Positions 3,809 through 46,285 of a stretch of 55,001 nucleotides of DNA are shown piece by piece (within the stretch, counting starts at the first letter, position 1; every line of letters starts with the position of its first letter). Source of the stretch: a virus (Duplodnaviria; Caudoviricetes); IMG/VR virus record IMGVR_UViG_3300037424_000895, positions 1 to 55,001 of that record; one strand, given 5' to 3'. A program made the position numbers and the translations under genes. Below the pieces are notes generated by a model. That model was not told the origin of the DNA, made no database searches, and saw only the letters and a program-made list of their open reading frames with translations.

Positions 3809-4903
3809 TCACCCGTGGATCTCCTTCAGCTTTTCAAACACGCAGTTGGGAATGTAGGATTTTGCTACTCTCTCCCACTCACGAAGCGCTAGCGACCCTT
3901 TGATGAGAGACGAGCTGATCTCGACCAGTTCACGTGGAGTGATCAGGAAGATCGTCTCGATGTCAGGAGCAATCTTCTTCTGGAGTAAATTAAGTTGGTT
4001 CTCATATTCAAAGTCAGGAGTTCCACGCAAGCCACGGAAGATGAACTTGGCATTTACCTGTTGAGCATAGCTGACTAACAGCTCTGAAGCTGGAAGCACA
4101 TTAATCGATACTCTGGTCAATTGTTCAGGAGTAAGGACTTCTGTTAGAGATTGTTGAACCAAGCTTTCTCGGTCCTCTTGAGAGAGGAGATACTTCTTAG
4201 TTGGGTTGTGTGCGACTGCCACAATAACGTGGTCAACGACGTCAAGTGCCTTCTGGATGACCCAAGTATGACCAAGTGTGATTGGGTCAAAGGAACCGGA
4301 CACGATGCCAATCTTCTTATCCTTCAGCATCTTTCGCTTGACAACGTCAACTGCTCTCTTGATTTCATGCTTCAGATAAGACTTATCTTCTGAAGCTCCA
4401 CCGCCGTTGTAAATGATCGCGTCACTGACTGAAACACGATCATCATCATTAGTTTGAGACTTCATGATTGCCAAAATGTGATCGCGATCTTTACCATCAC
4501 GTTCTGCAACACGTAGAATCTGCAGAGAGGGAGATGCAATCACGGTGATGATCGCGTCAAACATGTGGATGTAGTGTTTTCCCTTCTCAACTAGTAAGGG
4601 AAATTCAAAGATGAAGTCATCCATCGTCCAGAACAGCTGATCGATCTCTTGGTTGATGTAGGGAGCAAAGATATGTTCAAGCTGTTCTCGAGCAATTGCA
4701 TCTTGAAAGACGATCTTGCTGATCTCCTTCCGATCTACGGTGCCGAAGTTCTTCTTCAGTTCATCCATGAGCGATGTGGAGTGTGTATACAGCCAGTGAA
4801 CGAGAGAATCAAAACTGTAGTACTTGATCCCCAATTCGTTGGAAAGCATCTCACAGACAGTAGTCTTACCTGATCCGATTCCACCGGTAACGACAATCTT
4901 CAT
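3809..4903 (-). CDS. coaE-coaD: Dephospho-CoA kinase (CoaE) fused to phosphopantetheine adenylyltransferase (CoaD)
   Basis: N-terminal TGGIGSGKTTV, DRK-I-K-VF, RVAERDG, IMKSQ; C-terminal GSFDPITLGH, RGLRG-DFEYE, ISSSLIK. Confidence 0.92.
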   Translation of the reverse strand: MKIVVTGGIGSGKTTVCEMLSNELGIKYYSFDSLVHWLYTHSTSLMDELKKNFGTVDRKEISKIVFQDAIAREQLEHIFAPYINQEIDQLFWTMDDFIFEFPLLVEKGKHYIHMFDAIITVIASPSLQILRVAERDGKDRDHILAIMKSQTNDDDRVSVSDAIIYNGGGASEDKSYLKHEIKRAVDVVKRKMLKDKKIGIVSGSFDPITLGHTWVIQKALDVVDHVIVAVAHNPTKKYLLSQEDRESLVQQSLTEVLTPEQLTRVSINVLPASELLVSYAQQVNAKFIFRGLRGTPDFEYENQLNLLQKKIAPDIETIFLITPRELVEISSSLIKGSLALREWERVAKSYIPNCVFEKLKEIHG

Positions 4904-5145: not shown

Positions 5146-6732
5146 TTAGGTCTGAGCCCTTGTACGAACTTCATCCAAGTTCACCTTGTTGAAGATAGGT
5201 TGACCAGTGGTTGACGCAGTAGTCATGTTATGTTCGTACAAGGTTACCATCACATCTTCCCACTCGGAATCCAAGGGCTTGTCGATGTCAACGGTCATGA
5301 ACTCGGTAGGCATTATGCGGCTACGAACCAAGGTCAAGCGCCCTGCCTTGCTCTTCTTACCCGGATCGGTAATCGGATTCTTGAAGATCGCCTTCCAGAC
5401 CCCCATCAAGATTGCCGAGGCTTTCTGTGCAAACTTGTAGGTGTCACGATTGACCTTCTGCAACAATCCGCCCCCGGAGCCGAAGACAATGTTGGAAGAA
5501 GCATAACCCAGGCGAGTCACCATCTCCAAGATCTGAACCATTGCTTCGTAGTCAACTCCGTCGCCTTGCAAGAACCCGATGTGGTTGATCACTCGGTAAC
5601 CTTTGGTGTTCTTGGTAGAACCAAAGCCTGCTTCGATGATCTTGAACAGACGAGGCAACACCTCCATCGGATCGCCGGAATCTGGGCGTAGTACTACGCG
5701 CGCTCCCGAAGCGATGATCACGTCCTTCAGATCAACGATCTGTTGAGCTTCGCGGTAGACGTCATATCCGTCCAACACGATGGAGACGATCTTTCCTTCC
5801 TTCGCAAACGCGGTCAACATTGCCAACAGATACTCGCGCTGTTCCCAAGGCAAGGAACCGAAGGAACATTGTACTGTGTGTTCAGAGGCTGGGACGCTGT
5901 ACGCAGCCATTGGGTTGTCGTAGTAGAAGTTCGCGGCGCGAACGCCTTCAATGGTGTCAGAACCCATGAAGAACACCAAGTGCGCAGCTCCACCGATCTC
6001 AGCCTGTTCACCACAGGTTACACCGCGTCCGCCGAAGTCGTGCAATTGGAAGGGTACTAAGTTCAGATCATCACAGGTCTCTAAGGCGAAGCGACGGATC
6101 GCTCTCCAGCTCTTGTAGTCATTCGACGCGATGGTAGTTGGATACCAGATACCACGCTGCATGTTGGTTTCCAATTGCGAGGACTGCCAGTACACGCCAG
6201 GATCATCACACTCAACGGAAGCGATGATGTTCTGGCTGGGCACGCGCATACCTTCTGGAACGATGCGGATCTTAACCGGCAGATAACCGTTGTAGACGTT
6301 GACGACCTTTTCCCAGCCTGAACGTTGAAACGGTTCACCGTGAGCATTCGCGAATGCTTCTGCCTCGTCGATGTGTGCCATGGTAATGCGTTGCATCAGA
6401 TTTTTCTGTGCCCACATCTGAGCACCGAACGGAACGATGACTTCATCCTTGATGCGAGCTTCCAGGTAGGAGAACATCCCAGTGATACCCTTTCGGTAGA
6501 CGAAGGGGTGCGAAAACTTGTAGGAGTCAGCTCTCATGATTGGGTTGGGAGCCAAGATGGGACTGTTCGAAGTAACGTTGTTTGCTTCTTGAACGTAAGC
6601 CTCATAGTCTTGATTTTGAAAGGTTCCACCGAAATACTCGATATATTCTTCACGAGTTAACTTACGGACCCCACCAACCGCGGTGTTATCTGCGGCCATC
6701 ACGACGATGCCTGGTTTTTGTGTTTGTGACAT
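5146..6732 (-). CDS. nadV: Nicotinamide phosphoribosyltransferase (NAMPT)
   Basis: DSYKFSH, LHDFGGRG, SVPASEH, RPDSGDP, QGDGV, FGSGGGLLQKVNRDT, KNPITDPGKKSKAG motifs. Confidence 0.96.
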   Translation of the reverse strand: MSQTQKPGIVVMAADNTAVGGVRKLTREEYIEYFGGTFQNQDYEAYVQEANNVTSNSPILAPNPIMRADSYKFSHPFVYRKGITGMFSYLEARIKDEVIVPFGAQMWAQKNLMQRITMAHIDEAEAFANAHGEPFQRSGWEKVVNVYNGYLPVKIRIVPEGMRVPSQNIIASVECDDPGVYWQSSQLETNMQRGIWYPTTIASNDYKSWRAIRRFALETCDDLNLVPFQLHDFGGRGVTCGEQAEIGGAAHLVFFMGSDTIEGVRAANFYYDNPMAAYSVPASEHTVQCSFGSLPWEQREYLLAMLTAFAKEGKIVSIVLDGYDVYREAQQIVDLKDVIIASGARVVLRPDSGDPMEVLPRLFKIIEAGFGSTKNTKGYRVINHIGFLQGDGVDYEAMVQILEMVTRLGYASSNIVFGSGGGLLQKVNRDTYKFAQKASAILMGVWKAIFKNPITDPGKKSKAGRLTLVRSRIMPTEFMTVDIDKPLDSEWEDVMVTLYEHNMTTASTTGQPIFNKVNLDEVRTRAQT

Positions 6733-8136: not shown

Positions 8137-9315
8137 TCAAGACGTAAGTCTTCCTAACATATACTCGAGGATCAGCTCATGATCCTCGAAAAATCTGTTT
8201 TTAAAATCAGAAGAGTTCAAGGCCTCATTCAGCGGTACCCACACTGCCTTCTCAGCGTCATCGTCTCCCTTGATCGGAGGCATCGTGATCTTACCATCCT
8301 GAATGAAGTCAGGTAGCTTGAACAGAAACGCTTTGGTCAAGGTACGACCGCGCAGCGAGCGATCTGGGTGGTCAAAATCTTCCTTGAAGATCATCGAGCT
8401 GCGTAAGATCGGATCTGGAACCTTGAGCCTTGTTTCTTCACGCAACTCGCGAATGCAACCATCAAACAGCCGTTCTCTTGGGTTCAAGAAACCACCGGGT
8501 AGTGCCCACAATCCCTTCCCAGGGAATGCTCTGCGCTTGATCAGAAGGATATGACCAGTTTGAATGACTACTGCATCAACCGTTTGAAACATCACCTCAT
8601 AGGGCAGTCCGGGATCATCGCCATTGGCCCTCCGCACCCGATACGGTTTGCGGTATGCAATGTTGAAGTTGTGCTCAAAGCGCAGATTGTTATACTCCTC
8701 AGTCTTCTCGAATTCACGCAGGAAGTTGATCGTTTCTGTTGGAACGAAAGACTTCAACAGCATCTCGGTTTGTTCTGGAGTGATGTCACCGCCGTTGAAG
8801 CTACGACCGAAGTAGATCTCTCGAACAGCAGTAGCAGTCAGGAACTTACTGACTTCCATGTTCTCATCCACCATGTCAGAAATCCACTCGGGAAAGAACT
8901 TCAGGTAGAAGGTAGACGAGTCACGATCCGCACCGGTGATGTGGATCTCGACGTCTTTGGGATCGACTCTTACCAGCTTATCACCATCCCAGCATGCAAA
9001 ATCTTCAAGATAGCTGCTGACGACGCTGCGTACGTTCGCGATCCACAGTTGGTCATTGTAGAGAAAGTCGCGAATGCCTTTGATCGTTACTGGCTTAAAT
9101 GTACCAGGTACCCAAGTACGATCGGCATACTTTCGAATGATTCCGGCGCGTTCTTCAAACGTCCAGGGATTCTTTGGGTTGCGAGCCCAGTTTGTGGAGC
9201 CAATCAGGACGAGAACTGCATCTGATTTTTCGCGAGCTCTACGCAGTACTTCTGCGTGTCCGTTGTGGAAGGGTGAGAAGCGACCGATGTAAATTGTAAG
9301 AATCTTTTTTGACAT
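8137..9315 (-). CDS. nadM: Bifunctional NMN adenylyltransferase / ADP-ribose pyrophosphatase (NadM-Nudix, NatV-like)
   Basis: IGRFSPFHNGH (HxGH), KNPWTFEER, Nudix box ALPGGF...RELREET, PDRSLRGRTLT, DDAEKA, FFEDH. Confidence 0.95.
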   Translation of the reverse strand: MSKKILTIYIGRFSPFHNGHAEVLRRAREKSDAVLVLIGSTNWARNPKNPWTFEERAGIIRKYADRTWVPGTFKPVTIKGIRDFLYNDQLWIANVRSVVSSYLEDFACWDGDKLVRVDPKDVEIHITGADRDSSTFYLKFFPEWISDMVDENMEVSKFLTATAVREIYFGRSFNGGDITPEQTEMLLKSFVPTETINFLREFEKTEEYNNLRFEHNFNIAYRKPYRVRRANGDDPGLPYEVMFQTVDAVVIQTGHILLIKRRAFPGKGLWALPGGFLNPRERLFDGCIRELREETRLKVPDPILRSSMIFKEDFDHPDRSLRGRTLTKAFLFKLPDFIQDGKITMPPIKGDDDAEKAVWVPLNEALNSSDFKNRFFEDHELILEYMLGRLTS

Positions 9316-17230: not shown

Positions 17231-17315
17231 TGGTGCGTCTGGGGAGACTCGAACTCCCAACCCTTTCGGGACATGGACCTCAACCATGCGCGTATACCAA
17301 TTCCGCCACAAACGC
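17231..17315 (-). tRNA. tRNA-Leu(GAG)
   Basis: Type II cloverleaf, CATGG-TTGAGGT-CCATG, encoded CCA. Confidence 0.92.
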
Positions 17316-18389: not shown

Positions 18390-18463
18390 GGAGGGCTAGC
18401 AGGGAATCGAACCCCGGTTCATGGTCTTGGATGACCATCATTCTGCCATTGAATTACCAGCCC
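18390..18463 (-). tRNA. Atypical tRNA with an 8-nt anticodon loop (CATCCAAG; Trp/Gly-like)
   Basis: GGGCTGG/CTAGCCC acceptor, normal D- and T-arms, ATGGT-CATCCAAG-ACCAT. Confidence 0.65.
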
Positions 18464-18818: not shown

Positions 18819-18820
18819 TG

Positions 18821-18904
18821 GGTGCGAGATGAGGGACTCGAACCCTCACACCTTTCGGCGCTGGCTTCTAAGGCCAGTGCGTCTACCAATTCCGCCAACC
18901 TCGC
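18821..18904 (-). tRNA. tRNA-Leu(TAG)
   Basis: CTGGC-CTTAGAA-GCCAG, type II cloverleaf. Confidence 0.92.
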
Positions 18905-18907
18905 ATA

Positions 18908-19299: not shown

Positions 19300-19385
19300 G
19301 GCAGAGGGTAACAGAATCGAACTGTCAACCATCGCTGGTTGGGACGGTTTTCAAGACCGTGTCCGCGCCATGCAGCCTACCCTCT
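19300..19385 (-). tRNA. tRNA-Ser(TGA)
   Basis: ACGGT-CTTGAAA-ACCGT, long variable arm, G73. Confidence 0.85.
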
Positions 19386-19992: not shown

Positions 19993-20649
19993 ATGAAAGT
20001 TAATTCTTTTTTCTACACTCACAATAACTTCACAGCTACCGATAGAACTCCGTTTACATATGTCATTCGTTGGAAAAAGACCAACGACATCTACTACGGC
20101 GTCAAGTTTGCAAAAGGCTGTCTTCCATCAGACCTTGGAACAACTTACTTTTCAAGCTCTAGCAGAATTAGAAATTTAATTAAGCAACACGGGGCTGAGA
20201 ACTTTGACTTTGAAGTTCGAAAAGTATTTCAAACTGTTGAAAAGGCAAGAGACTGGGAAACCAAAATTCTTACAAAGTTTCTTGAAAAGCCAAAATTTCT
20301 TAATAAGCACAAGAACGACGGATTCTGCAAGATAGACAACGCTGGAATTCGAAACCCTAGATATGGTACAATTTCAAATAAAGGCAGCCGTTGGTCTCTT
20401 TCAGAAGAAACAAAGCAAAAGATGAGAAAACCAAAGACCAAAGAACATGCTCAGAATGCAGCAAGAGCTAAGATCGGCAAAAGTGTATACCCTTCAGAAG
20501 AGACGAAGAAGAAAATGTCAATCTCTGGGAAAGCTAGAGTCAAAAATATAGTAACTTGTCCTCACTGTGGAAAAATAGGATTTGACAGAGGAATGACAAG
20601 ATATCACTTTGACAACTGCAAGACATTGAAACAACCTAAGATAGACTAG
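19993..20649 (+). mobile_element. GIY-YIG (Seg-like) homing endonuclease, antisense to the tRNA array
   Basis: FTYVI...IYYG, YFSSS, conserved E and N, SEETK.KM NUMOD3 repeats, CPHC; TATAAATA at 19927-19934. Confidence 0.85.
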
Positions 20650-20719: not shown

Positions 20720-20809
20720 GGTGGGTGCTGTAGGATTCGAACCTACGTTAGCTCCGCAGAGCCCTGGGGTTAATGCCCCAGTCGGAATCTCCAACTCCAT
20801 CGTACACCC
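20720..20809 (-). tRNA. Atypical type II (Tyr-like body) tRNA with a 6/8-nt anticodon loop (CATTAA)
   Basis: CTGGGG-CATTAA-CCCCAG, variable arm GGCTC/GAGCT, A73. Confidence 0.6.
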
Positions 20810-20895
20810 GGTGCGCGATGTCGGACTCGAACCGACACGCCCCTGAGGACCCGGACTTCTAAGGACCGGAAGACTACCAATTCCATCAATCGCGC
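20810..20895 (-). tRNA. tRNA-Leu(TAG), slightly degenerate
   Basis: CGGTC-CTTAGAA-GTCCG. Confidence 0.8.
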
Positions 20896-20986
20896 GGCGG
20901 AAGAATACGGAATCGAACCGTAAGCAGGTGTTATCCTGCTCGAGCTGCTTTCCAAGCAGACCTCAGCCCAGCTGAGTTAATCTTCC
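20896..20986 (-). tRNA. tRNA-Ser(GGA)
   Basis: CTGC-TTGGAAA-GCAG, long variable arm, G73. Confidence 0.88.
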
Positions 20987-21193: not shown

Positions 21194-21278
21194 TGGTGCC
21201 TCGAGAGGGACTCGAACCCTCAAGCCCTACGGGCGACGGATTTTAAGTCCGTTGCGTATACCATTCCACCACCGAGGC
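21194..21278 (-). tRNA. tRNA-Leu(TAA)
   Basis: ACGGA-CTTAAAA-TCCGT, type II, CCA. Confidence 0.93.
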
Positions 21279-21357: not shown

Positions 21358-21440
21358 TGGTACCAGCGGAGGGATTCGAACCCTCAATGGACTGAGCTCT
21401 CGACCCAGTAACTTTACCAATTCGTACTATCCACGCTGGC
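21358..21440 (-). tRNA. Atypical tRNA-Leu(GAG)-like with an extended acceptor-D connector
   Basis: GCCAGCG-TGGATAG...CTGGG-TCGAGAG-CTCAG-TCCATT; ACCA. Confidence 0.65.
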
Positions 21441-21450
21441 ATTTCTCTTG

Positions 21451-22020
21451 TTACTTATTGCTTCTGATATCTCTCATTTGCTCTGCTAGCGCCTTAAGTC
21501 GTTTGAACGACGTCGGTAAGCAGTTGTCAGGAACATCTGCAGCCTGTTCGACGACCAATGCAGCAAGTTCTCCAAACATCAAAACTGGGAGGTGTGTCTT
21601 CCGCATCATCTCGTCATGCTTTACATCAGTGATCTTGACACCGTCGATCTCAGTCACGATCTCATTGCAGATTTTCTGAAACATCTCGATGACTTCTTCA
21701 CTACCGGTAGAAGTATGTAAGACCTTCAGTGATAAGGTGACTGGGATACATCCAATGTTTGGACCCAACAGCCCAAAGGAAGGCAGAACCTGTATCGTGA
21801 CTCATACTGTGTTCGCGAATCTCTGAACTGAACAGATGTTCACGAGATGCTGTCCTACATGTTTTGCTGCTACTTCATCAAATGCAGAAACAGGAACCGA
21901 GAGAATCACCACGTCTGCTTCGTCTGAGTTCATTTCTGGAAGAATCTCAACATGAGGGGCAAGCTCTCTTGTTAGAAATGTACCGAAGACTCCTGAGCTG
22001 CCGATGATTGCAACTTTCAT
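21451..22020 (-). pseudogene. tyrA: Prephenate-dehydrogenase (TyrA)-like gene interrupted by an in-frame TGA
   Basis: MKVAIIGSSGVFG Rossmann start, DVVILSVP, CSVQ, xxGP, HDEMM; both ORFs in the same frame, separated by TGA at 21802-21804. Confidence 0.65.
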
Positions 22021-22045
22021 GTTAAGCTCCTGTTTAGTATAAAGA

Positions 22046-22122
22046 TGGTACCCCCGGAGGGACTCGAACCCTCAAAATCTACCTTCTGAAGATAGCATGT
22101 ATACCAATTCCATCACAAGGGC
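22046..22122 (-). tRNA. tRNA-Leu(CAG), short variable loop
   Basis: CTATC-TTCAGAA-GGTAG, ACCA. Confidence 0.88.
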
Positions 22123-22135
22123 ATTTACAAACTAC

Positions 22136-22237
22136 TGGCGGGCCTGCAGGGAATCGAACCCCGCTCAACGGTTTTCCGATGTACCCTCTTTGGAAGGCAC
22201 ATTGGAGACCGCTATATTACCGATATACGACAGACCC
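22136..22237 (-). tRNA. tRNA-Trp(CCA) with a 28-nt insertion after position 37
   Basis: GCGGT-CTCCAA-[28 nt]-A-ACCGT; otherwise canonical, G73-CCA. Confidence 0.8.
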
Positions 22238-22356
22238 GTTGTTACTTTGGGTGACGCAACGAATTGCGTCAATTCTTAGCAGCATAAGTATCTTGCTGCG
22301 TGTGACAATTTGGACATAAGAATCGCAGATTTTCCAATCGATGGTAGGAGTTCAAT

Positions 22357-22440
22357 TGGTGCCCTCGGTCGGATTCGAACCAACAAGAACTGCAGATTTT
22401 AAATCTGCTGGCTGTACCAATTTACCTTAGTCACGAGGGC
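22357..22440 (-). tRNA. Atypical tRNA-Leu(TAA) with an extended connector
   Basis: GCCCTCG-TGACTAA-GGT...GCAGA-TTTAAAA-TCTGC-AGTTCTT; ACCA. Confidence 0.8.
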
Positions 22441-22514
22441 GGCAGTTCATAGAGGAATCGAACCCCTGAGTGGAGATTTGGAGGCTCCCATGTTACCAAC
22501 TACATCAATGACCC
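22441..22514 (-). tRNA. tRNA-Trp(CCA) with some mismatches
   Basis: GGAGC-CTCCAAA-TCTCC, G73. Confidence 0.75.
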
Positions 22515-22587
22515 GGAGGGAAACTACGGAATCGAACCGCAATTTTGGAGGTTGGAGCTCCACGTCTTACCACTAGACCAGTAACCC
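22515..22587 (-). tRNA. CCA-anticodon tRNA with U73 and a mismatched acceptor stem
   Basis: TGGAG-CTCCAAC-CTCCA. Confidence 0.65.
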
Positions 22588-22593
22588 ATTTGA

Positions 22594-22684
22594 TGGCGGA
22601 AGATGGCGGATTTGAACCCCCTAACCCCTTTCAGGATCAAACAGCTTTCAAGGCTGTGCTGCTCTCCAAGACAGTAGATCTTCC
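22594..22684 (-). tRNA. tRNA-Ser(TGA)
   Basis: ACAGC-CTTGAAA-GCTGT, long variable arm, GCCA. Confidence 0.88.
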
Positions 22685-22771
22685 GGCTGAAGTTAAGAGA
22701 ATCGAACTCTCGTCCCTTTCGGGACGGCAACGGTTTTCGAGGCCGTTTGTACTCCATGTACGCTAACTTCC
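22685..22771 (-). tRNA. tRNA-Ser(CGA)
   Basis: ACGGC-CTCGAAA-ACCGT, long variable arm. Confidence 0.82.
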
Positions 22772-22773
22772 AA

Positions 22774-22859
22774 TGGTGGATGCCGAAAGATTCGAACTTT
22801 CTCAGCCAGTGGCAGAAGATTTACAGTCTTCCGAGACTCTCCAACGTCCCCGCGCATCC
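22774..22859 (-). tRNA. tRNA-Tyr(GTA)
   Basis: GAAGA-CTGTAAA-TCTTC, ACCA. Confidence 0.88.
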
Positions 22860-22860
22860 G

Positions 22861-23412
22861 TTACTTGTTGTAAAAGTCCTTCCAATTTGGAAGTTGAATC
22901 AATAAACTTTTACTCGAGAGAGTTTCTCTCTCATATTTCTTTTCACTGTGAATAATTCTATGATGATTTGGGCAAACATAGATCAAATTTGAAATTTCAT
23001 TTGTACCGCCGTTGCTCTTTTCAACAATGTGATGAACATCACCAATAGATTCATTCCATCCACAAATTGCACATCCAATTTTAGCTCTCTTAAAGATTTT
23101 AGAAATTGTTCTTGATGATAAATCCATCAACGAAACAGAACCTTCTTTAAAATGAACTACTTTTCTTTTGCAGTTATCACATACTATTTTTCTACCATTT
23201 TTAATTTTCTTCTTTTGAAAAGAAGTATTGCAATTTACACAAACATAATTAAAAATGACTTCTCTCTCAGGATATTGTCTCCCAGAAAGTTTCTTACTTA
23301 TTTTGTCTAAGGTTTCTTTGCTATGAACTCTTTGGTTTGCGCAAAATCTAGAACAAAATTTACCGCTTCCAAAACTTCCATCATTCTCTTTTCCACATCT
23401 TAAACAAATCAT
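22861..23412 (-). mobile_element. HNH homing endonuclease between two tRNA-Tyr genes
   Basis: CAICGW...DVHHI...GGTNEISNLIYVCPNHH; AT-rich; TATAAATA at 23437-23444. Confidence 0.88.
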
Positions 23413-23461
23413 TTGAGTCCTCTTTGACTAAAAATTTATTTATAGTCTAAGTGAATTCGAT

Positions 23462-23552
23462 TGGTGGATCTCGGGTCGAGTTGAACGCCAGGCCGCGAGG
23501 GAGATGGTTTACAGCCATCCGAGAAGACCGCTTCTCCTTATTGACAAGATCC
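23462..23552 (-). tRNA. Degenerate or atypical tRNA-Tyr(GTA)
   Basis: GATGG-CTGTAAA-CCATC; 8-bp acceptor, long connector, weak T-arm; ACCA. Confidence 0.65.
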
Positions 23553-23563
23553 AATGTTACTTC

Positions 23564-23647
23564 TGGTACCCTCGACCGGATTCGAACCGGTAAGAACTCT
23601 AGTTTTTGAAACTAGTGGCTGTGCCAATTTACCTAAGTCACGAGGGC
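23564..23647 (-). tRNA. Atypical tRNA-Leu(CAA) with an extended connector
   Basis: GCCCTCG-TGACTTA-GGT...CTAGT-TTCAAAA-ACTAG-AGTTCTT; ACCA. Confidence 0.8.
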
Positions 23648-23733
23648 GGCGGAAGATTGAGGGCACGATCCCCAGACCTTTCGGTCCCAACTGTTTAGCA
23701 AACAGCGCCGTCAACCTTGACGGGTAATCTTCC
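23648..23733 (-). tRNA. tRNA-Ser(GCT)
   Basis: GCTGT-TTGCTAA-ACAGT, long variable arm, G73. Confidence 0.85.
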
Positions 23734-23747
23734 AAAGATACTACTCC

Positions 23748-33004: not shown

Positions 33005-34042
33005 TTACTTGCTTGCTTTGAACAGCTGTCTTACGATGCTGTCACCCTCACGGCTGAAACGTACGAAGCTGAAGATGCGTTCAGACCATCCAGACAGTTG
33101 AGTCCAACCGCGGATCTCAGAGATCGGTGTAGTACCTCCACCGTTCAAGTTCAACGCGATCTTCACACAGTCCTTCGTGAAGATCTTGGATGGGTCATTG
33201 AACCGCAGAGAGTTCACCTCCATGTCAGAGATCACAATGACGGTGTCTGGTTCGTAGCCCAGGCTTGATTTCATGTTAAGAGCTGCCTGCATGTCAGTAC
33301 CGCCTCCGAAGTTACGCTTCATGATCTGCTGATACATCGTGAAGATGGAGTCAGCCGGATTCAGCGGAACCGATACAGCATAGTCACTGAACATCGTGAA
33401 CGTCATGTTGAACGACTTTGACTTTGCCGAAGCCTTAACCAATGCTGCTCCGAAGATGGAACCCAACTTCATCGGAGAATTGTTGGTAGTGTCTTCACGA
33501 CCACCGCGGTAGCCGCCGTAACCTGAGAAGTTCATCATAGAGCCGGAGCAGTCCAGGATGATCCACACGTTCTTGCTCAGTTCTGGCATGTTCTTGAACG
33601 AGTGCTCGAGAGCATCATTCAGCGCTGTCAGGATGACTTGCGGTACGCTGTTTGCACGAGCCACCTCATATGCGTTCACGAAACCAAACGGCAACTGCTT
33701 GGACTTCTCCACAGCCTTTGGATTGCTGATGCGGTCAGCAACCTTCTGCCAAGTCTCGTTCGAGATGCCGGCTTCCTTCATGTTTCGCAGGTTTCGGATC
33801 AGCGCCATGTAACCCAGAGAGCCAGAACCCTCGCGGTTGATGAGCTCGGTCCACAGTGCAGCCTTTGACTTCTGTTCTTCCTTCGGAAGCTGACCGTTCT
33901 TGGACAGCTCAACTTCCCAAGTGTACGGAGATTCCAGTGTTTCGTCCATGATCTTCTTGAAGATCTCGGTGTGGACTTCATCGATCGGCTTCGGGTGAAC
34001 GATGCGCAGCAGTTGTTTAAACGTTAACTGAGGTGTTGACAT
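33005..34042 (-). CDS. rsr: Ro60/TROVE protein, C-terminal part (TROVE C-half plus vWA domain)
   Basis: LLRIVHPKP, TWEVELS, LGYMALIRNLRNM, SKQLPF, DCSGSM MIDAS, GGT, ISDME; own AAGGA RBS and ATG. Confidence 0.9.
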   Translation of the reverse strand: MSTPQLTFKQLLRIVHPKPIDEVHTEIFKKIMDETLESPYTWEVELSKNGQLPKEEQKSKAALWTELINREGSGSLGYMALIRNLRNMKEAGISNETWQKVADRISNPKAVEKSKQLPFGFVNAYEVARANSVPQVILTALNDALEHSFKNMPELSKNVWIILDCSGSMMNFSGYGGYRGGREDTTNNSPMKLGSIFGAALVKASAKSKSFNMTFTMFSDYAVSVPLNPADSIFTMYQQIMKRNFGGGTDMQAALNMKSSLGYEPDTVIVISDMEVNSLRFNDPSKIFTKDCVKIALNLNGGGTTPISEIRGWTQLSGWSERIFSFVRFSREGDSIVRQLFKASK

Positions 34043-34682
34043 TATTTTCTTCCTTATGAAGGTTCTTATGACATTTGACACAGAGTGTCAACCCATTTTC
34101 CAGATCAAAGATAAGATCTGGAAATTCACTTACTTTCTTGATATGATGAGCTTCTATATATTGCCTACCACGCTTTAAACATTTTTGACAAGTCCAATCG
34201 TCTCTCTTGAAAACTTCAGTTCTCCATTCTTTGTACTCTGGAGAATTTCGAATAAGAGTGTTCTTAGAACTTGTACCACCCTTCCAATTCCAATGAGATT
34301 CTTTACTCTTACCGTATTTGATCCTATCAGGATGTGTTAACTTTGTTAAACCTTTATTCCAAGTTTTTCTTCCCCTTGTGGCAGTAGAAATGTTTTGTTT
34401 TCGTTCTTCTGAAAATTTCATCCCGCTAAGAGAATTAGCAATTTTATACTTATGCTCTACGGTTAGAATTCTATTGCTTGCAGCTTTACTTAAAAGTTCA
34501 AATGTCTGATATCGTTCACGTTCTTTATCTCTTTCAATTCCAAACTTTTTGAATTTATTAGCAATCGCGGTAAAAGAACATTTAAAACGTAATGAAATTT
34601 CATAGATAGAAAGTTTTTGACCCCAATAAAGATCAATTAGTTCTTCTTTACTAACCTTAACTCTCGCATATTTTTCTTTCAT
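34017..34682 (-). mobile_element. Free-standing HNH homing endonuclease inserted in the Ro60 gene
   Basis: WNKG, HWNWKGG, YKEWR..VFKRD..TCQKC, AHHI, NGLTLC..CH; AT-rich; CATAAATA at 34704-34711 plus RBS hairpin. Confidence 0.92.
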
Positions 34683-44949: not shown

Positions 44950-45458
44950 TTTGATTCTCCTTTGAGGCCGGGTAGATCTTCTACTGCCAATGGTCCCTCT
45001 CCGTAGAGAGAAGTTCCATAGACTCGCAGAAGGGTTGAAAATACATGTCGATTGTACACGTCATAACTTGGAGGAAAGTCCAAGTTATAGATACGTGCGA
45101 TGAACTTTGCCACCGCAGCAGATCTTGAGATGCCAGCTTCACAGTGACAGATTGCGTGTAGAGTATCATCTTGATGTTGTTTCAAGAACTTCAAGATCTT
45201 GACCGCGTCATCTTCGTTAAAGAGTCGGTAATGTTTAACATCTGCAGCGTTCATGAGACCAGGATCGCGATCATCATACTCGAGTCTCAGGACTGCCTTC
45301 CAAGTATCATCATGCAACTTTGCTGGCGAGCAGTTCCACGAGACGGTGTCAGGAATCGCGGGTGTCGTCATGGAGATCAAGACACGCGTGTCTTGTCCGC
45401 TGGGTTCCCAGAAGATTTCAGCTCGTTGTTTTGAGACGAAGTTAGTGATCGTGAACAT
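44946..45458 (-). CDS. Cys-based (PTP/dual-specificity) phosphatase
   Basis: HCEAGISRSAA (CX5R). Confidence 0.9.
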   Translation of the reverse strand: MFTITNFVSKQRAEIFWEPSGQDTRVLISMTTPAIPDTVSWNCSPAKLHDDTWKAVLRLEYDDRDPGLMNAADVKHYRLFNEDDAVKILKFLKQHQDDTLHAICHCEAGISRSAAVAKFIARIYNLDFPPSYDVYNRHVFSTLLRVYGTSLYGEGPLAVEDLPGLKGESK

Positions 45459-46285
45459 CAGCAGCTTTCAGTTCGAGTTGAAAACTCTTTTGAGATCTTG
45501 GTGAAGTTGGAATGGTACCCAGGAATCTTGTAATAACCTTCACCCAAACATCCCCAATACAACTCTTGCACAGCATTATCTGTCATCTTAGGCAAGATCT
45601 CCTTGATCACTTCTGGGGTCTGTCCGAGAATGTACTTGATCGGTCTGATGATCGTGTGATGGCCAGGCTCTTGAGCGAGTTTCAGGTAGTCCTCGATCGA
45701 GGAGATCGCGGCAAAATTCAGCTTAGCCTCGATGTCAGGAGAGTCTCCTACGTAGTTTGCGTAATATAGGAAGAACACATCGTTATCGATGTTGTCACGA
45801 TCGAGGATGTCTACGAGTTTTTCTTCGTGTGTACCGGTGATGCGAACATCGTCTATGAAGATGAGAGTCTTCCCCTCGATGAAGTCGCGGTTGAGATAGA
45901 ATGAGTCATTGTCGATGAGACTCTTACGTTTGTCTTTTGACAAGAATCCGTAGTCATTCGTGTAGCTGACCTTGCGGTGGATGATCGAGTAGTCCAAGTG
46001 ACTGCCGTTTGAACTGACCAGCAATTCATTGAGCTTGTTCGCGAAGTGCATCGTCAGCACAGTAGCAGCATTCTTGATGAAGTTGTACGGCGACGGAATG
46101 ACGACACAGTTGTTAGCGAGAAGATGATCAGAGTGTGCCTCAAAGAACTTGATCGCTAGCTCTCGTCCTAACTTCTTTGCTGCAGAATCACTACCGAACT
46201 TTAGCCTGGAGTACTCATGGGCAGAAAACCCAGAAGATTGCAGATCACAAAAGGAGTGAACGAAAAAGCGTTGATGGTTACCCAT
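45458..46285 (-). CDS. Phosphoribosyltransferase-like protein (PRTase_2 type)
   Basis: YSRLKFGS, IFIDDVRITGTHE PRPP loop. Confidence 0.85.
   Translation of the reverse strand: MGNHQRFFVHSFCDLQSSGFSAHEYSRLKFGSDSAAKKLGRELAIKFFEAHSDHLLANNCVVIPSPYNFIKNAATVLTMHFANKLNELLVSSNGSHLDYSIIHRKVSYTNDYGFLSKDKRKSLIDNDSFYLNRDFIEGKTLIFIDDVRITGTHEEKLVDILDRDNIDNDVFFLYYANYVGDSPDIEAKLNFAAISSIEDYLKLAQEPGHHTIIRPIKYILGQTPEVIKEILPKMTDNAVQELYWGCLGEGYYKIPGYHSNFTKISKEFSTRTESC

Follow-up and report, generated by a model that had tools for sequence, protein, structure and literature searches.

Three genes in a 55,001-nucleotide stretch of viral DNA encode leucine transfer RNAs (tRNAs) that carry an extra helix, which forms between the variable region and the connector that joins the acceptor stem to the D arm. 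We refer to this element as helix X and to genes that encode it as X-type. The stretch (hereafter, the window) is a 55-kb fragment of the IMG/VR viral record IMGVR_UViG_3300037424_000895 with an estimated completeness of ~15%; its minus strand is gene-dense, and a tRNA cluster that includes the X-type genes occupies ~17.2-24.4 kb (Table 1). From comparison of these genes with a family of relatives, we conclude that the X-type is a new structural variant of tRNA-Leu, which occurs widely among large phages and mostly escapes routine annotation. Judged from sequence, the X-type genes probably encode working leucine tRNAs of large phages, which follow a non-cloverleaf plan and are charged by the host.

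All three genes lie on the minus strand, and they contain, from 5' to 3', a 7-bp acceptor stem, a 7-nt connector, a Leu-type D arm whose 3-bp stem encloses a 9-nt loop with AAUUGG, a single A at position 26, an anticodon arm with a 5-bp stem and a 7-nt loop (anticodons CAA, UAA and GAG), a variable region of 7 nt (CAA and UAA genes) or 6 nt (GAG gene), a T arm with a 5-bp stem and the loop UUCGAAU, and the 3' strand of the acceptor stem, which is followed by A73 and CCA. The original prediction, which was made from sequence alone, had described three tRNA-shaped genes with leucine anticodons that lack the long variable arm, have 7 nt in the connector where 2 nt is normal, show complementarity between connector and variable region (GACU/AGUU in the CAA and UAA genes, UGGA/UCCA in the GAG gene), and end in A73-CCA, and each of these features is present at the positions that it gave.

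The X-type genes depart from the established classes of tRNA in defined ways. The acceptor, anticodon and T stems of the cloverleaf are present with their usual lengths (7 bp, 5 bp with a 7-nt loop, and 5 bp, respectively), they covary, and the T loop matches the consensus. However, the acceptor and D stems are separated by 7 nt in all three genes, where a cloverleaf has 2 nt (positions 8 and 9). The genes also differ from type I tRNA-Leu, which has a canonical cloverleaf with a 5-nt variable loop; from allo-tRNAs, which have an 8/4 or 9/3 acceptor/T branch, as all members of the 80-nt alignment described below have a 7/5 branch; and from bacterial tRNA-Leu with a long variable arm, as the variable region of the three genes contains 6-7 nt and that of family members in general 6-9 nt. 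Standard tools handle this arrangement poorly. None of the three genes reaches the gathering threshold of 29 bits for the Rfam tRNA model RF00005 (Table 1), which aligns the CAA and UAA genes over model positions 8/9-63 only and leaves the acceptor stem and five extra bases outside, and none is among the 13 tRNAs that ARAGORN calls in the window.

The U directly after the acceptor stem is invariant and aligns with U8 of type I tRNA-Leu in a covariance model of the family (R1, see below), and the nearly invariant A that precedes the D stem corresponds to position 9. The alignment of the invariant U with U8 suggests that the anomaly consists of a 5-nt insertion between U8 and A9 together with one extra variable nucleotide. 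In the CAA gene, for which the R1 alignment and family covariation set the register of helix X, U8 is nucleotide 23640 and the linker UA (23635-23634) follows the 5' strand of the helix; the first A of the 3' strand AGUU is the additional variable nucleotide and has U12 as its partner, and CUU separates this strand from the T stem. The UAA gene is 82% identical to the CAA gene. The GAG gene is a divergent member in which D-stem pair 16:30 is A-U rather than G-C and position 33 is C. Its helix X adopts the register of the 80-nt family, with A-U at 11:50, which is the second rarest of the four pair types seen there, G-C at 10:51 and 9:52, and an extra pair between U8 and A53. Thus, the claim of different sequence with preserved pairing holds, and it does so in a common register with the 80-nt family. 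The proposed length of the helix requires qualification: it is 4 bp in the three window genes, but it is 3 bp in most members, and the family core comprises only the pairs between connector positions 9-11 and the first three variable bases, which a fourth pair extends at one or the other end in the window genes. As a four-base match between 7-nt stretches would hardly surpass chance when seen in only three genes, the case for helix X is made by the family.

The family consists of 72 distinct sequences, which come from the window, 46 IMG/VR records, two contigs binned into metagenome-assembled genomes (MAGs), and the cultured phages Synechococcus BUCT-ZZ01, Rhizobium RHph_I1_18 and Pseudomonas PHB09. 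Megablast of the window tRNA region against phage records returned only two short matches, to a canonical tRNA-Leu. With blastn, the match in BUCT-ZZ01 was full-length and unannotated, and that in RHph_I1_18, the one studied among 11 Rhizobium phage records with blastn matches, covered the 5' part. A first pattern scan of IMG/VR yielded 36 loci. A second pattern, which yielded 71 loci, constrained no more than a segment of the D arm, the first bases of the T loop and the spacing between them, which precludes tRNAs with a 5-nt variable loop, and left the connector and variable bases free. All tRNA-like matches of this second pattern have a connector of 7 or 9 nt, and the IMG/VR family members are all recoverable by a pattern that is blind to the bases of the connector and variable region. 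We then built R1 from the 80-nt members, which located more divergent copies in full viral records and in PHB09. R1 scores the family at 65-99 bits, type I tRNA-Leu at 52-64 bits and long-arm type II tRNA-Leu at 31-46 bits. Most members are 80 nt long (59 of 72, the others 78-83 nt), and the connector is 7 nt in 68 members and 9 nt in the other four.

Members of the family are rarely annotated. ARAGORN called two of the 15 X-type genes that we checked, one of them with wrong ends, and in the three cultured-phage records the genes are either unannotated or covered by a "hypothetical protein", as is the case for the PHB09 member. The absence of X-type genes from ARAGORN calls and from records implies that phage tRNA censuses and codon-supply analyses undercount leucine tRNAs. 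The hosts represented include a cyanobacterium, an alpha-proteobacterium and a gamma-proteobacterium, and a divergent relative occurs in a Bacteroidota phage. A scan of prokaryote genomes returned at least 120 loci, of which three passed a crude filter, and among the matches listed two were true members, both on MAG contigs. One of these contigs (L288) is phage-like, as all eight open reading frames (ORFs) examined match PHROGs and it contains a dense tRNA array. For each of the two MAGs, 25 relatives were scanned with 150 first-look candidates scored per genome, and none had a family-level match; the X-type seems to be confined to phage DNA. Within phages, the X-type genes are conserved: between the window and a syntenic 345-kb phage genome (G004), in DNA that has otherwise diverged, the CAA/UAA type is 94.5% identical and the GAG gene with its neighboring ORF is ~73% identical.

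Two further phage sequences resemble the family and lie outside the 72. In Cellulophaga phage Calle_1 (MT732432.1), a divergent-looking relative (L235:44-126) scores 47.5 bits and has a UAG anticodon, 4-bp pairing between connector and variable region, and a differing D arm; the tRNA features of that record match its sequence only when shifted by 52 nt, after which this locus corresponds to "tRNA-OTHER, Undet". We rejected a candidate in Aeromonas phage Aeh1 (L232, AY266303.2 104667-104841), which matches weakly, has 6 nt in the anticodon loop and forms a poor acceptor stem; it is an unannotated tRNA-like sequence between two ORFs, with a good T arm.

The original prediction proposed a covariance model of phage homologues and a search for covariation as its check, and covariation was indeed found, in 53 gap-free homologues as well as in the length variants, which substantiates a distinct architecture with a genuine extra helix. 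Pairing was counted in an alignment of the 53 distinct 80-nt members (A2); a MAFFT alignment (A1) was set aside because of a misplaced gap where the anticodon stem ends. A2 contains no gaps, so the test of pairing is free of alignment bias. Positions 9 and 52 form a standard pair in all 53 members (29 G-U, 24 G-C), as do positions 10 and 51 (30 G-C, 23 A-U), and positions 11 and 50 do so in 51 members through all four Watson-Crick types (28 C-G, 17 U-A, 5 A-U and 1 G-C). Beyond this core, positions 8 and 53 form a standard pair in only five of the 53, with mostly U facing U or C. Overall, 157 of the 159 cells for the three core pairs are paired (98.7%), compared with 77.7 +/- 1.7% in shuffled controls, and none of 500 shuffles equaled either the observed pairing or the observed covariation score. 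Sliding the partner by one to three columns lowered pairing to at most 69.2%. The classical stems in A2 are paired at 99.7% (acceptor), 96.6% (anticodon) and 100% (T), with two-sided changes in seven, five and four pairs, respectively, and helix X is comparable to them. The triplets that face each other in the 80-nt members occur in ten complementary combinations, including GAC/GUU, GGC/GCU, GGU/ACC, GGA/UCC, GAG/CUU and GAU/AUU, and in two combinations with a single mismatch.

Two additional lines of evidence point to paired rather than merely complementary strands. On a quick maximum-likelihood tree built from the other 67 columns of A2, columns 10 and 51 each change eight times and their pair state changes eight times, and the corresponding counts for columns 11 and 50 are 16 each, with 17 for the pair state; the near equality of these counts indicates that both sides change together. 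Furthermore, members of 81-83 nt, which include the CAA and UAA genes of the window, have one additional variable nucleotide directly 3' of the anticodon stem. By eye, this nucleotide and connector position 12 form U-A, G-C or C-G in eight cases and face each other as U/U in three, and these length variants retain pairing in a shifted register. Of the three D-stem pairs, 10:25 has U facing U in 49 of the 53 members and G-C or G-U in four; pair 11:24 is G-C in 52 members and A-U in the GAG gene of the window; and pair 12:23 is C-G or U-G, with G-C in PHB09 and one other member (L269).

Next to the helix, the features associated with leucine identity are conserved throughout the family. A73 is present in all 72 members. 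By script, 71 members have a leucine anticodon (40 UAG, 11 CAA, 10 UAA, 6 GAG, 2 CAG and 2 AAG), and the remaining member (L051), which the script mis-parsed, has UAA by eye. U33 occurs in 71 members (70 by script and L051 by eye), A37 in 69, an encoded CCA in 57, and a T loop that starts with UUCGA in 71. In A2, A35, A37, the D-loop run that contains A14, A15 and G18G19, and the last two U's of the variable region are invariant. According to the portion of Fan et al. (2019; PMC6614811) available to us, the determinants recognized by Escherichia coli leucyl-tRNA synthetase (LeuRS) comprise A73, A14, A15-U48, G18G19 with U55/C56, and U54-A58. With the A14, A15, G18G19 and U48 columns numbered by alignment, the family carries A73, A14, A15-U48, G18G19, U54-A58 and a leucine anticodon, which agrees with the identity set in that portion of the paper. 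A LeuRS gene was detected in none of 12 records that carry X-type genes (11 of them at least 90% complete), in a search whose control was detected in 14 of 14 genomes, which suggests that charging would depend on the host enzyme.

The strongest indication that X-type genes decode comes from their distribution among phage tRNA sets. In near-complete phage records, the X-type occupies leucine slots in sets of unique anticodons with approximately one tRNA per amino acid. For example, the 20 kb examined of a 94% complete genome (G040) contains 14 tRNAs (13 called by ARAGORN and one by R1), and the only leucine tRNAs among them, UAG and CAA, are both X-type. In the 20 kb examined of a complete genome (G036), tRNA-Pro and X-type UAG are the only tRNAs. 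X-type UAG stands alongside type II UAA in two genomes (G044, which is complete, and G002), and alongside type I UAA in a third (G016), which also encodes tRNA-Pro, as well as in the array of MAG contig L288, where ARAGORN finds 23 genes (22 tRNAs and a transfer-messenger RNA [tmRNA]). As codon-box slots are not where one would expect a decoy, we read X-type RNAs as decoding tRNAs charged by the host enzyme. Among the functional, nuclease-evading and decoy roles that had been proposed for these genes, we favor the functional one because the anticodons are exclusively those of leucine, A73, A14, A15, G18G19 and U48 are conserved, and leucine slots are filled in compact phage tRNA sets; a function as leucine decoder is likely.

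Several observations weigh against this reading of the helix and of its function. The conserved helix is just 3 bp, and one of its pairs (9:52) is G-U in 29 of the 53 members. The 67-column tree is weak, and independent contrasts on its supported branches are few (3, 5, 5 and 3), with none reaching p < 0.05; those that differ are all in the expected direction. Both helix X and the D stem are absent from the RNAalifold prediction for A2. Adding helix X shifts the evaluated energy of the three genes by +1.7, +1.6 and -0.5 kcal/mol, and the minimum free energy structures of single sequences include it in the GAG gene only, with ordinary z-scores of -2.3 to -3.5. We gave the energy results little weight because the energy model penalizes a 3-bp helix that closes a multiloop; as energy methods are blind to helix X, the case rests on covariation. 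With respect to function, the GAG gene of the window is the sole member with C33, which is atypical for an elongator tRNA; its relative in G004 (L278:6927-7007) has U33. The type I tRNA-Leu of Streptomyces coelicolor is not charged by E. coli LeuRS, according to the available portion of PMC6614811, which means that charging of a short-arm leucine tRNA by the host cannot be assumed. Finally, the window also contains type II UAA and GAG isoacceptors, which makes the X-type copies redundant as decoders and leaves room for another role, and G004 likewise has redundant isoacceptors in two or three architectures.

Two other readings were rejected. The hairpin that RNAalifold proposes in the D region shows no two-sided change and is broken in PHB09 and L269, which retain 17:29 as G-C, and a further ground is that the GAG gene of the window and another member (L271) keep 16:30 as A-U. 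A 5-nt mini-intron was rejected both because an intron would not covary with the variable region and because splicing of such an intron is not known in bacteria.

The relationship between X-type and type I tRNA-Leu is consistent with an origin of one from the other. R1 aligns type I tRNA-Leu end to end, with a 5-nt deletion after U8 and a 1-nt deletion in the variable region. Type I tRNA-Leu genes were found in Salmonella phage STG2, Myxococcus phage Mx1, Vibrio phage VH1_2019 and several of the viral records that also carry X-type genes, including the window, where the type I tRNA-Leu(CAG) gene is the nearest ordinary relative of the X-type. Furthermore, 36 of the 72 members, among them the CAA (23647/23568) and GAG (21440/21362) genes of the window, open the acceptor stem with a G-U wobble, and G1-U72 recurs among type I genes, namely those of the window (CAG), G004 (CAA), STG2 and Mx1. 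That X-type and type I genes have this wobble in common fits common descent.

Based on these relationships, we propose that X-type tRNAs would have been derived from the short-variable-loop type I tRNA-Leu borne by the same phages, through insertion of 5 nt between U8 and A9 and addition of one nucleotide to the variable region. Three of the inserted bases would pair, by Watson-Crick or G-U pairing, with the first three variable bases, and the window genes would add a fourth pair. The new helix would close the D and anticodon arms into one three-way junction, and the acceptor stem, helix X and T arm would form a second, such that the single four-way junction of the cloverleaf would become two three-way junctions. 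In the 80-nt form, the variable strand of helix X directly extends the 3' strand of the anticodon stem, and at the far end of the helix a single nucleotide (U8) leads to the acceptor stem and three nucleotides lead to the T stem. Judged from these spacings, the helix would have to bridge the distance that the D stem normally accounts for and run alongside it. This is the space through which positions 9 and 44-48 pass in an ordinary tRNA and where they form base triples. Helix X would replace the triples usually made by positions 9, 45 and 46, and because U8, A14, A15, U48, G18G19 and the T loop are kept, the L shape and its elbow could survive. The host LeuRS would then charge the tRNA with leucine, and UUR or CUN codons would be decoded during infection. 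A search of sequencing runs listed no RNA run that contains the sequence, and we infer expression, processing, charging, the three-dimensional arrangement and decoding. The helix may restore bulk or rigidity to the variable region such that a host LeuRS tuned to type II substrates accepts a short tRNA; alternatively, the altered core may escape defenses directed against tRNA. In its most specific form, the proposal describes a natural, five-helix, non-cloverleaf elongator tRNA-Leu that occurs across large phages of distant hosts and is charged by unmodified host LeuRS, in which helix X may take over the stacking of the D stem on the anticodon stem; toward this form we lean only slightly.

The alternative that survives best is that X-type RNAs are working leucine tRNAs in which the core was altered mainly to evade, or to avoid triggering, a tRNA-directed defense or a phage-made nuclease that reads long-arm tRNA-Leu, such that helix X is a disguise rather than a structural necessity. 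The presence in the window and in G004 of the same anticodons in two or three architectures suits back-up copies of this kind, and the portion of PMC11555353 available to us documents phage tRNAs that evade retrons and other tRNA-targeting defenses. However, the available portions of the literature consulted report no defense that cleaves tRNA-Leu or reads the variable arm, and in small phages the X-type is the only CUN decoder, which plain supply explains equally well. We regard evasion as the main driver of the altered core as unlikely.

Less probable still is that X-type RNAs are non-decoding mimics, e.g., decoys or sponges for a tRNA-binding enzyme, primers or regulators, which keep tRNA-Leu features for the sake of recognition. 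A departure from the cloverleaf, the location of the genes in arrays with other irregular tRNA-like genes, the duplication of canonical isoacceptors by the window copies and the G1-U72 wobble in half of the family (36/72) would all be compatible with mimicry. In contrast, a mimic would have no need to maintain six leucine anticodons within a 7-nt loop, nearly universal U33 and A37 (71 and 69 of 72), combinations of different isoacceptors in one genome, or a distribution in which the X-type is the sole candidate for a leucine codon box in several phages. Lastly, it is highly improbable that the covarying bases are unpaired in the mature tRNA and owe their complementarity to a precursor fold, a processing step or shared ancestry, as, although the helix is short, is not predicted by energy-based folding and has covariation counts that are uncorrected for phylogeny, both strands lie inside the mature tRNA body, complementary triplet combinations outnumber those with a single mismatch by ten to two among 80-nt members, state changes on the tree coincide on both sides, and register-shifted variants still pair.

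Compared with known tRNAs, working X-type leucine tRNAs would be closest to type I tRNA-Leu, which is known from S. coelicolor (CAA; available portion of PMC6614811) and from the phage genes described above. The two types share the leucine anticodon, A73, the Leu-type D loop that contains G18G19 and a 7/5 acceptor/T branch, the long variable arm is absent from both, and end-to-end R1 alignments of type I genes score 56-64 bits. However, type I tRNA-Leu has a 2-nt connector and a 5-nt variable loop that do not pair with each other, and it is detected by ARAGORN and Rfam, whereas the X-type has five more connector nucleotides and one or two more variable nucleotides, which form the covarying helix. 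With type II tRNA-Leu, the X-type shares its anticodons, A73, a 3-bp D stem with positions 13 and 22 unpaired, the layout of the D loop, the T loop and, probably, the same synthetase. In type II tRNA-Leu, the variable arm is a self-contained hairpin of more than 10 nt, whereas the sole helix of the X-type in this region uses the strand of the 8/9 connector and thus encloses the D and anticodon arms.

The resemblance to other non-canonical tRNAs is more limited. Like the allo-tRNAs and irregular tRNAs described in the available portions of Mukai et al. (2017; PMC5389517) and Krahn et al. (2020; PMC7609411), X-type tRNAs are natural and non-canonical, occur partly in phage clusters, and are missed or mis-annotated by standard tools. 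The irregular tRNAs in the available portion of PMC5389517 have 8/4 and 9/3 acceptor/T branches, and in one class an extra loop separates the acceptor stem from the D stem. As described in these portions, allo-tRNAs and irregular tRNAs have an altered acceptor/T split or a separate hairpin, long variable arms and mostly serine identity, whereas the X-type retains the 7/5 split and has no added hairpin. In the D-armless mitochondrial tRNA-Ser(AGY), as far as the available accounts describe it, the connector likewise contacts the variable region and holds the core together; however, that tRNA lacks the D arm and elbow contacts, and the X-type has a complete D arm and T loop. A full-text literature search, which had subscription-only papers outside its scope, revealed no description of a Watson-Crick helix between connector and variable region, and none of the known tRNAs compared above has one.

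An exception to the cloverleaf that is backed by covariation and operates in infected bacteria would widen the range of substrates known to be accepted by LeuRS, EF-Tu, RNase P, modification enzymes and the ribosome. The family represents a natural experiment on how LeuRS reads the core of a tRNA and offers a possible scaffold for engineered tRNAs. The window contains tRNA-Leu in three architectures, i.e., four type II genes (with a long variable arm visible in the Rfam alignments of three), one type I gene and three X-type genes, and G004 has a similar mix. The occurrence of three architectures in one phage raises a testable question of defense and counter-defense.

Table 1. Positions of the X-type genes, the strands of helix X, other tRNA-Leu genes and endonuclease-like ORFs in the window
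Feature	Position (strand)	Details
X-type tRNA-Leu(CAA)	23564..23647 (-)	84 nt including encoded CCA; R1 85.0 bits; Rfam tRNA 28.7 bits
Helix X 5' strand, CAA gene	23636..23639 (-)	GACU, RNA positions 9-12; partner 23595-23598
Helix X 3' strand, CAA gene	23595..23598 (-)	AGUU, RNA positions 50-53; abuts anticodon stem
Anticodon CAA, CAA gene	23606..23608 (-)	loop UUCAAAA
X-type tRNA-Leu(UAA)	22357..22440 (-)	84 nt including encoded CCA; R1 85.0 bits; Rfam tRNA 27.7 bits
Helix X 5' strand, UAA gene	22429..22432 (-)	GACU
Helix X 3' strand, UAA gene	22388..22391 (-)	AGUU
X-type tRNA-Leu(GAG)	21358..21440 (-)	83 nt including encoded CCA; R1 81.0 bits; Rfam tRNA 23.8 bits
Helix X 5' strand, GAG gene	21430..21433 (-)	UGGA, RNA positions 8-11
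Helix X 3' strand, GAG gene	21388..21391 (-)	UCCA, RNA positions 50-53
Type I tRNA-Leu(CAG)	22046..22122 (-)	ARAGORN; Rfam 51.9 bits; R1 56.6 bits; 2-nt connector, 5-nt variable loop, G1-U72
Type II tRNA-Leu(GAG)	17231-17315 (-)	ARAGORN, long arm
Type II tRNA-Leu(UAG)	18819-18905 (-)	ARAGORN, long arm
Type II tRNA-Leu(UAG)	20810-20895 (-)	ARAGORN; long arm judged from ARAGORN length of 86 nt alone
Type II tRNA-Leu(UAA)	21194-21278 (-)	ARAGORN, long arm
HNH homing-endonuclease-like ORF	22861-23412	within tRNA cluster
SegE-type GIY-YIG homing-endonuclease-like ORF	19993-20649	within tRNA cluster

The window also contains other irregular tRNA-like genes. A tRNA at 18390-18463 (-) scores 50 bits with Rfam and has an anticodon loop that contains UCCA and can be read as 8 nt or, with a stem of 6 bp, as 6 nt; ARAGORN lists its type as undetermined, with a two-base anticodon. 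Another tRNA at 22139-22237 (-), which scores 41.8 bits with Rfam, has a hairpin-forming insert of 30 nt in the anticodon loop beside CCA. This insert is below the size of a group I intron, and two tandem tRNA-Trp(CCA) genes are located nearby at 22441-22587. Six long-arm tRNA-like genes on the minus strand (23648-23735, 22689-22770, 20723-20809, 22594-22684, 20896-20986 and 19300-19385) have acceptor helices of 8 to 9 bp and score better with the Rfam tRNA-Sec model than with the tRNA model, although below threshold. ARAGORN misses three of the six, and the gene at 20723-20809 has UUA in an odd anticodon loop. By analogy with those that the available portion of PMC5389517 describes in phages, these six genes may encode serine tRNAs of the 8/4 type.

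Among the protein-coding genes of the window, an ORF at 33005-34081 (-) encodes a TROVE (Ro60-like) domain (Pfam E = 1.9e-19). Bacterial Ro proteins act with Y RNAs that bear tRNA-like modules. A set of genes for cofactor metabolism on the minus strand (3809-4903, 5146-6732, 8137-9315 and 45458-46285) includes a CoaE/cytidylyltransferase-like fusion, a nicotinamide phosphoribosyltransferase, a nucleotidyltransferase-NUDIX fusion and a ComF-like phosphoribosyltransferase. Finally, ARAGORN identified permuted tmRNA genes inside the tRNA arrays of BUCT-ZZ01 (L003:5367-5785) and the MAG contig (L288:5410-5746).

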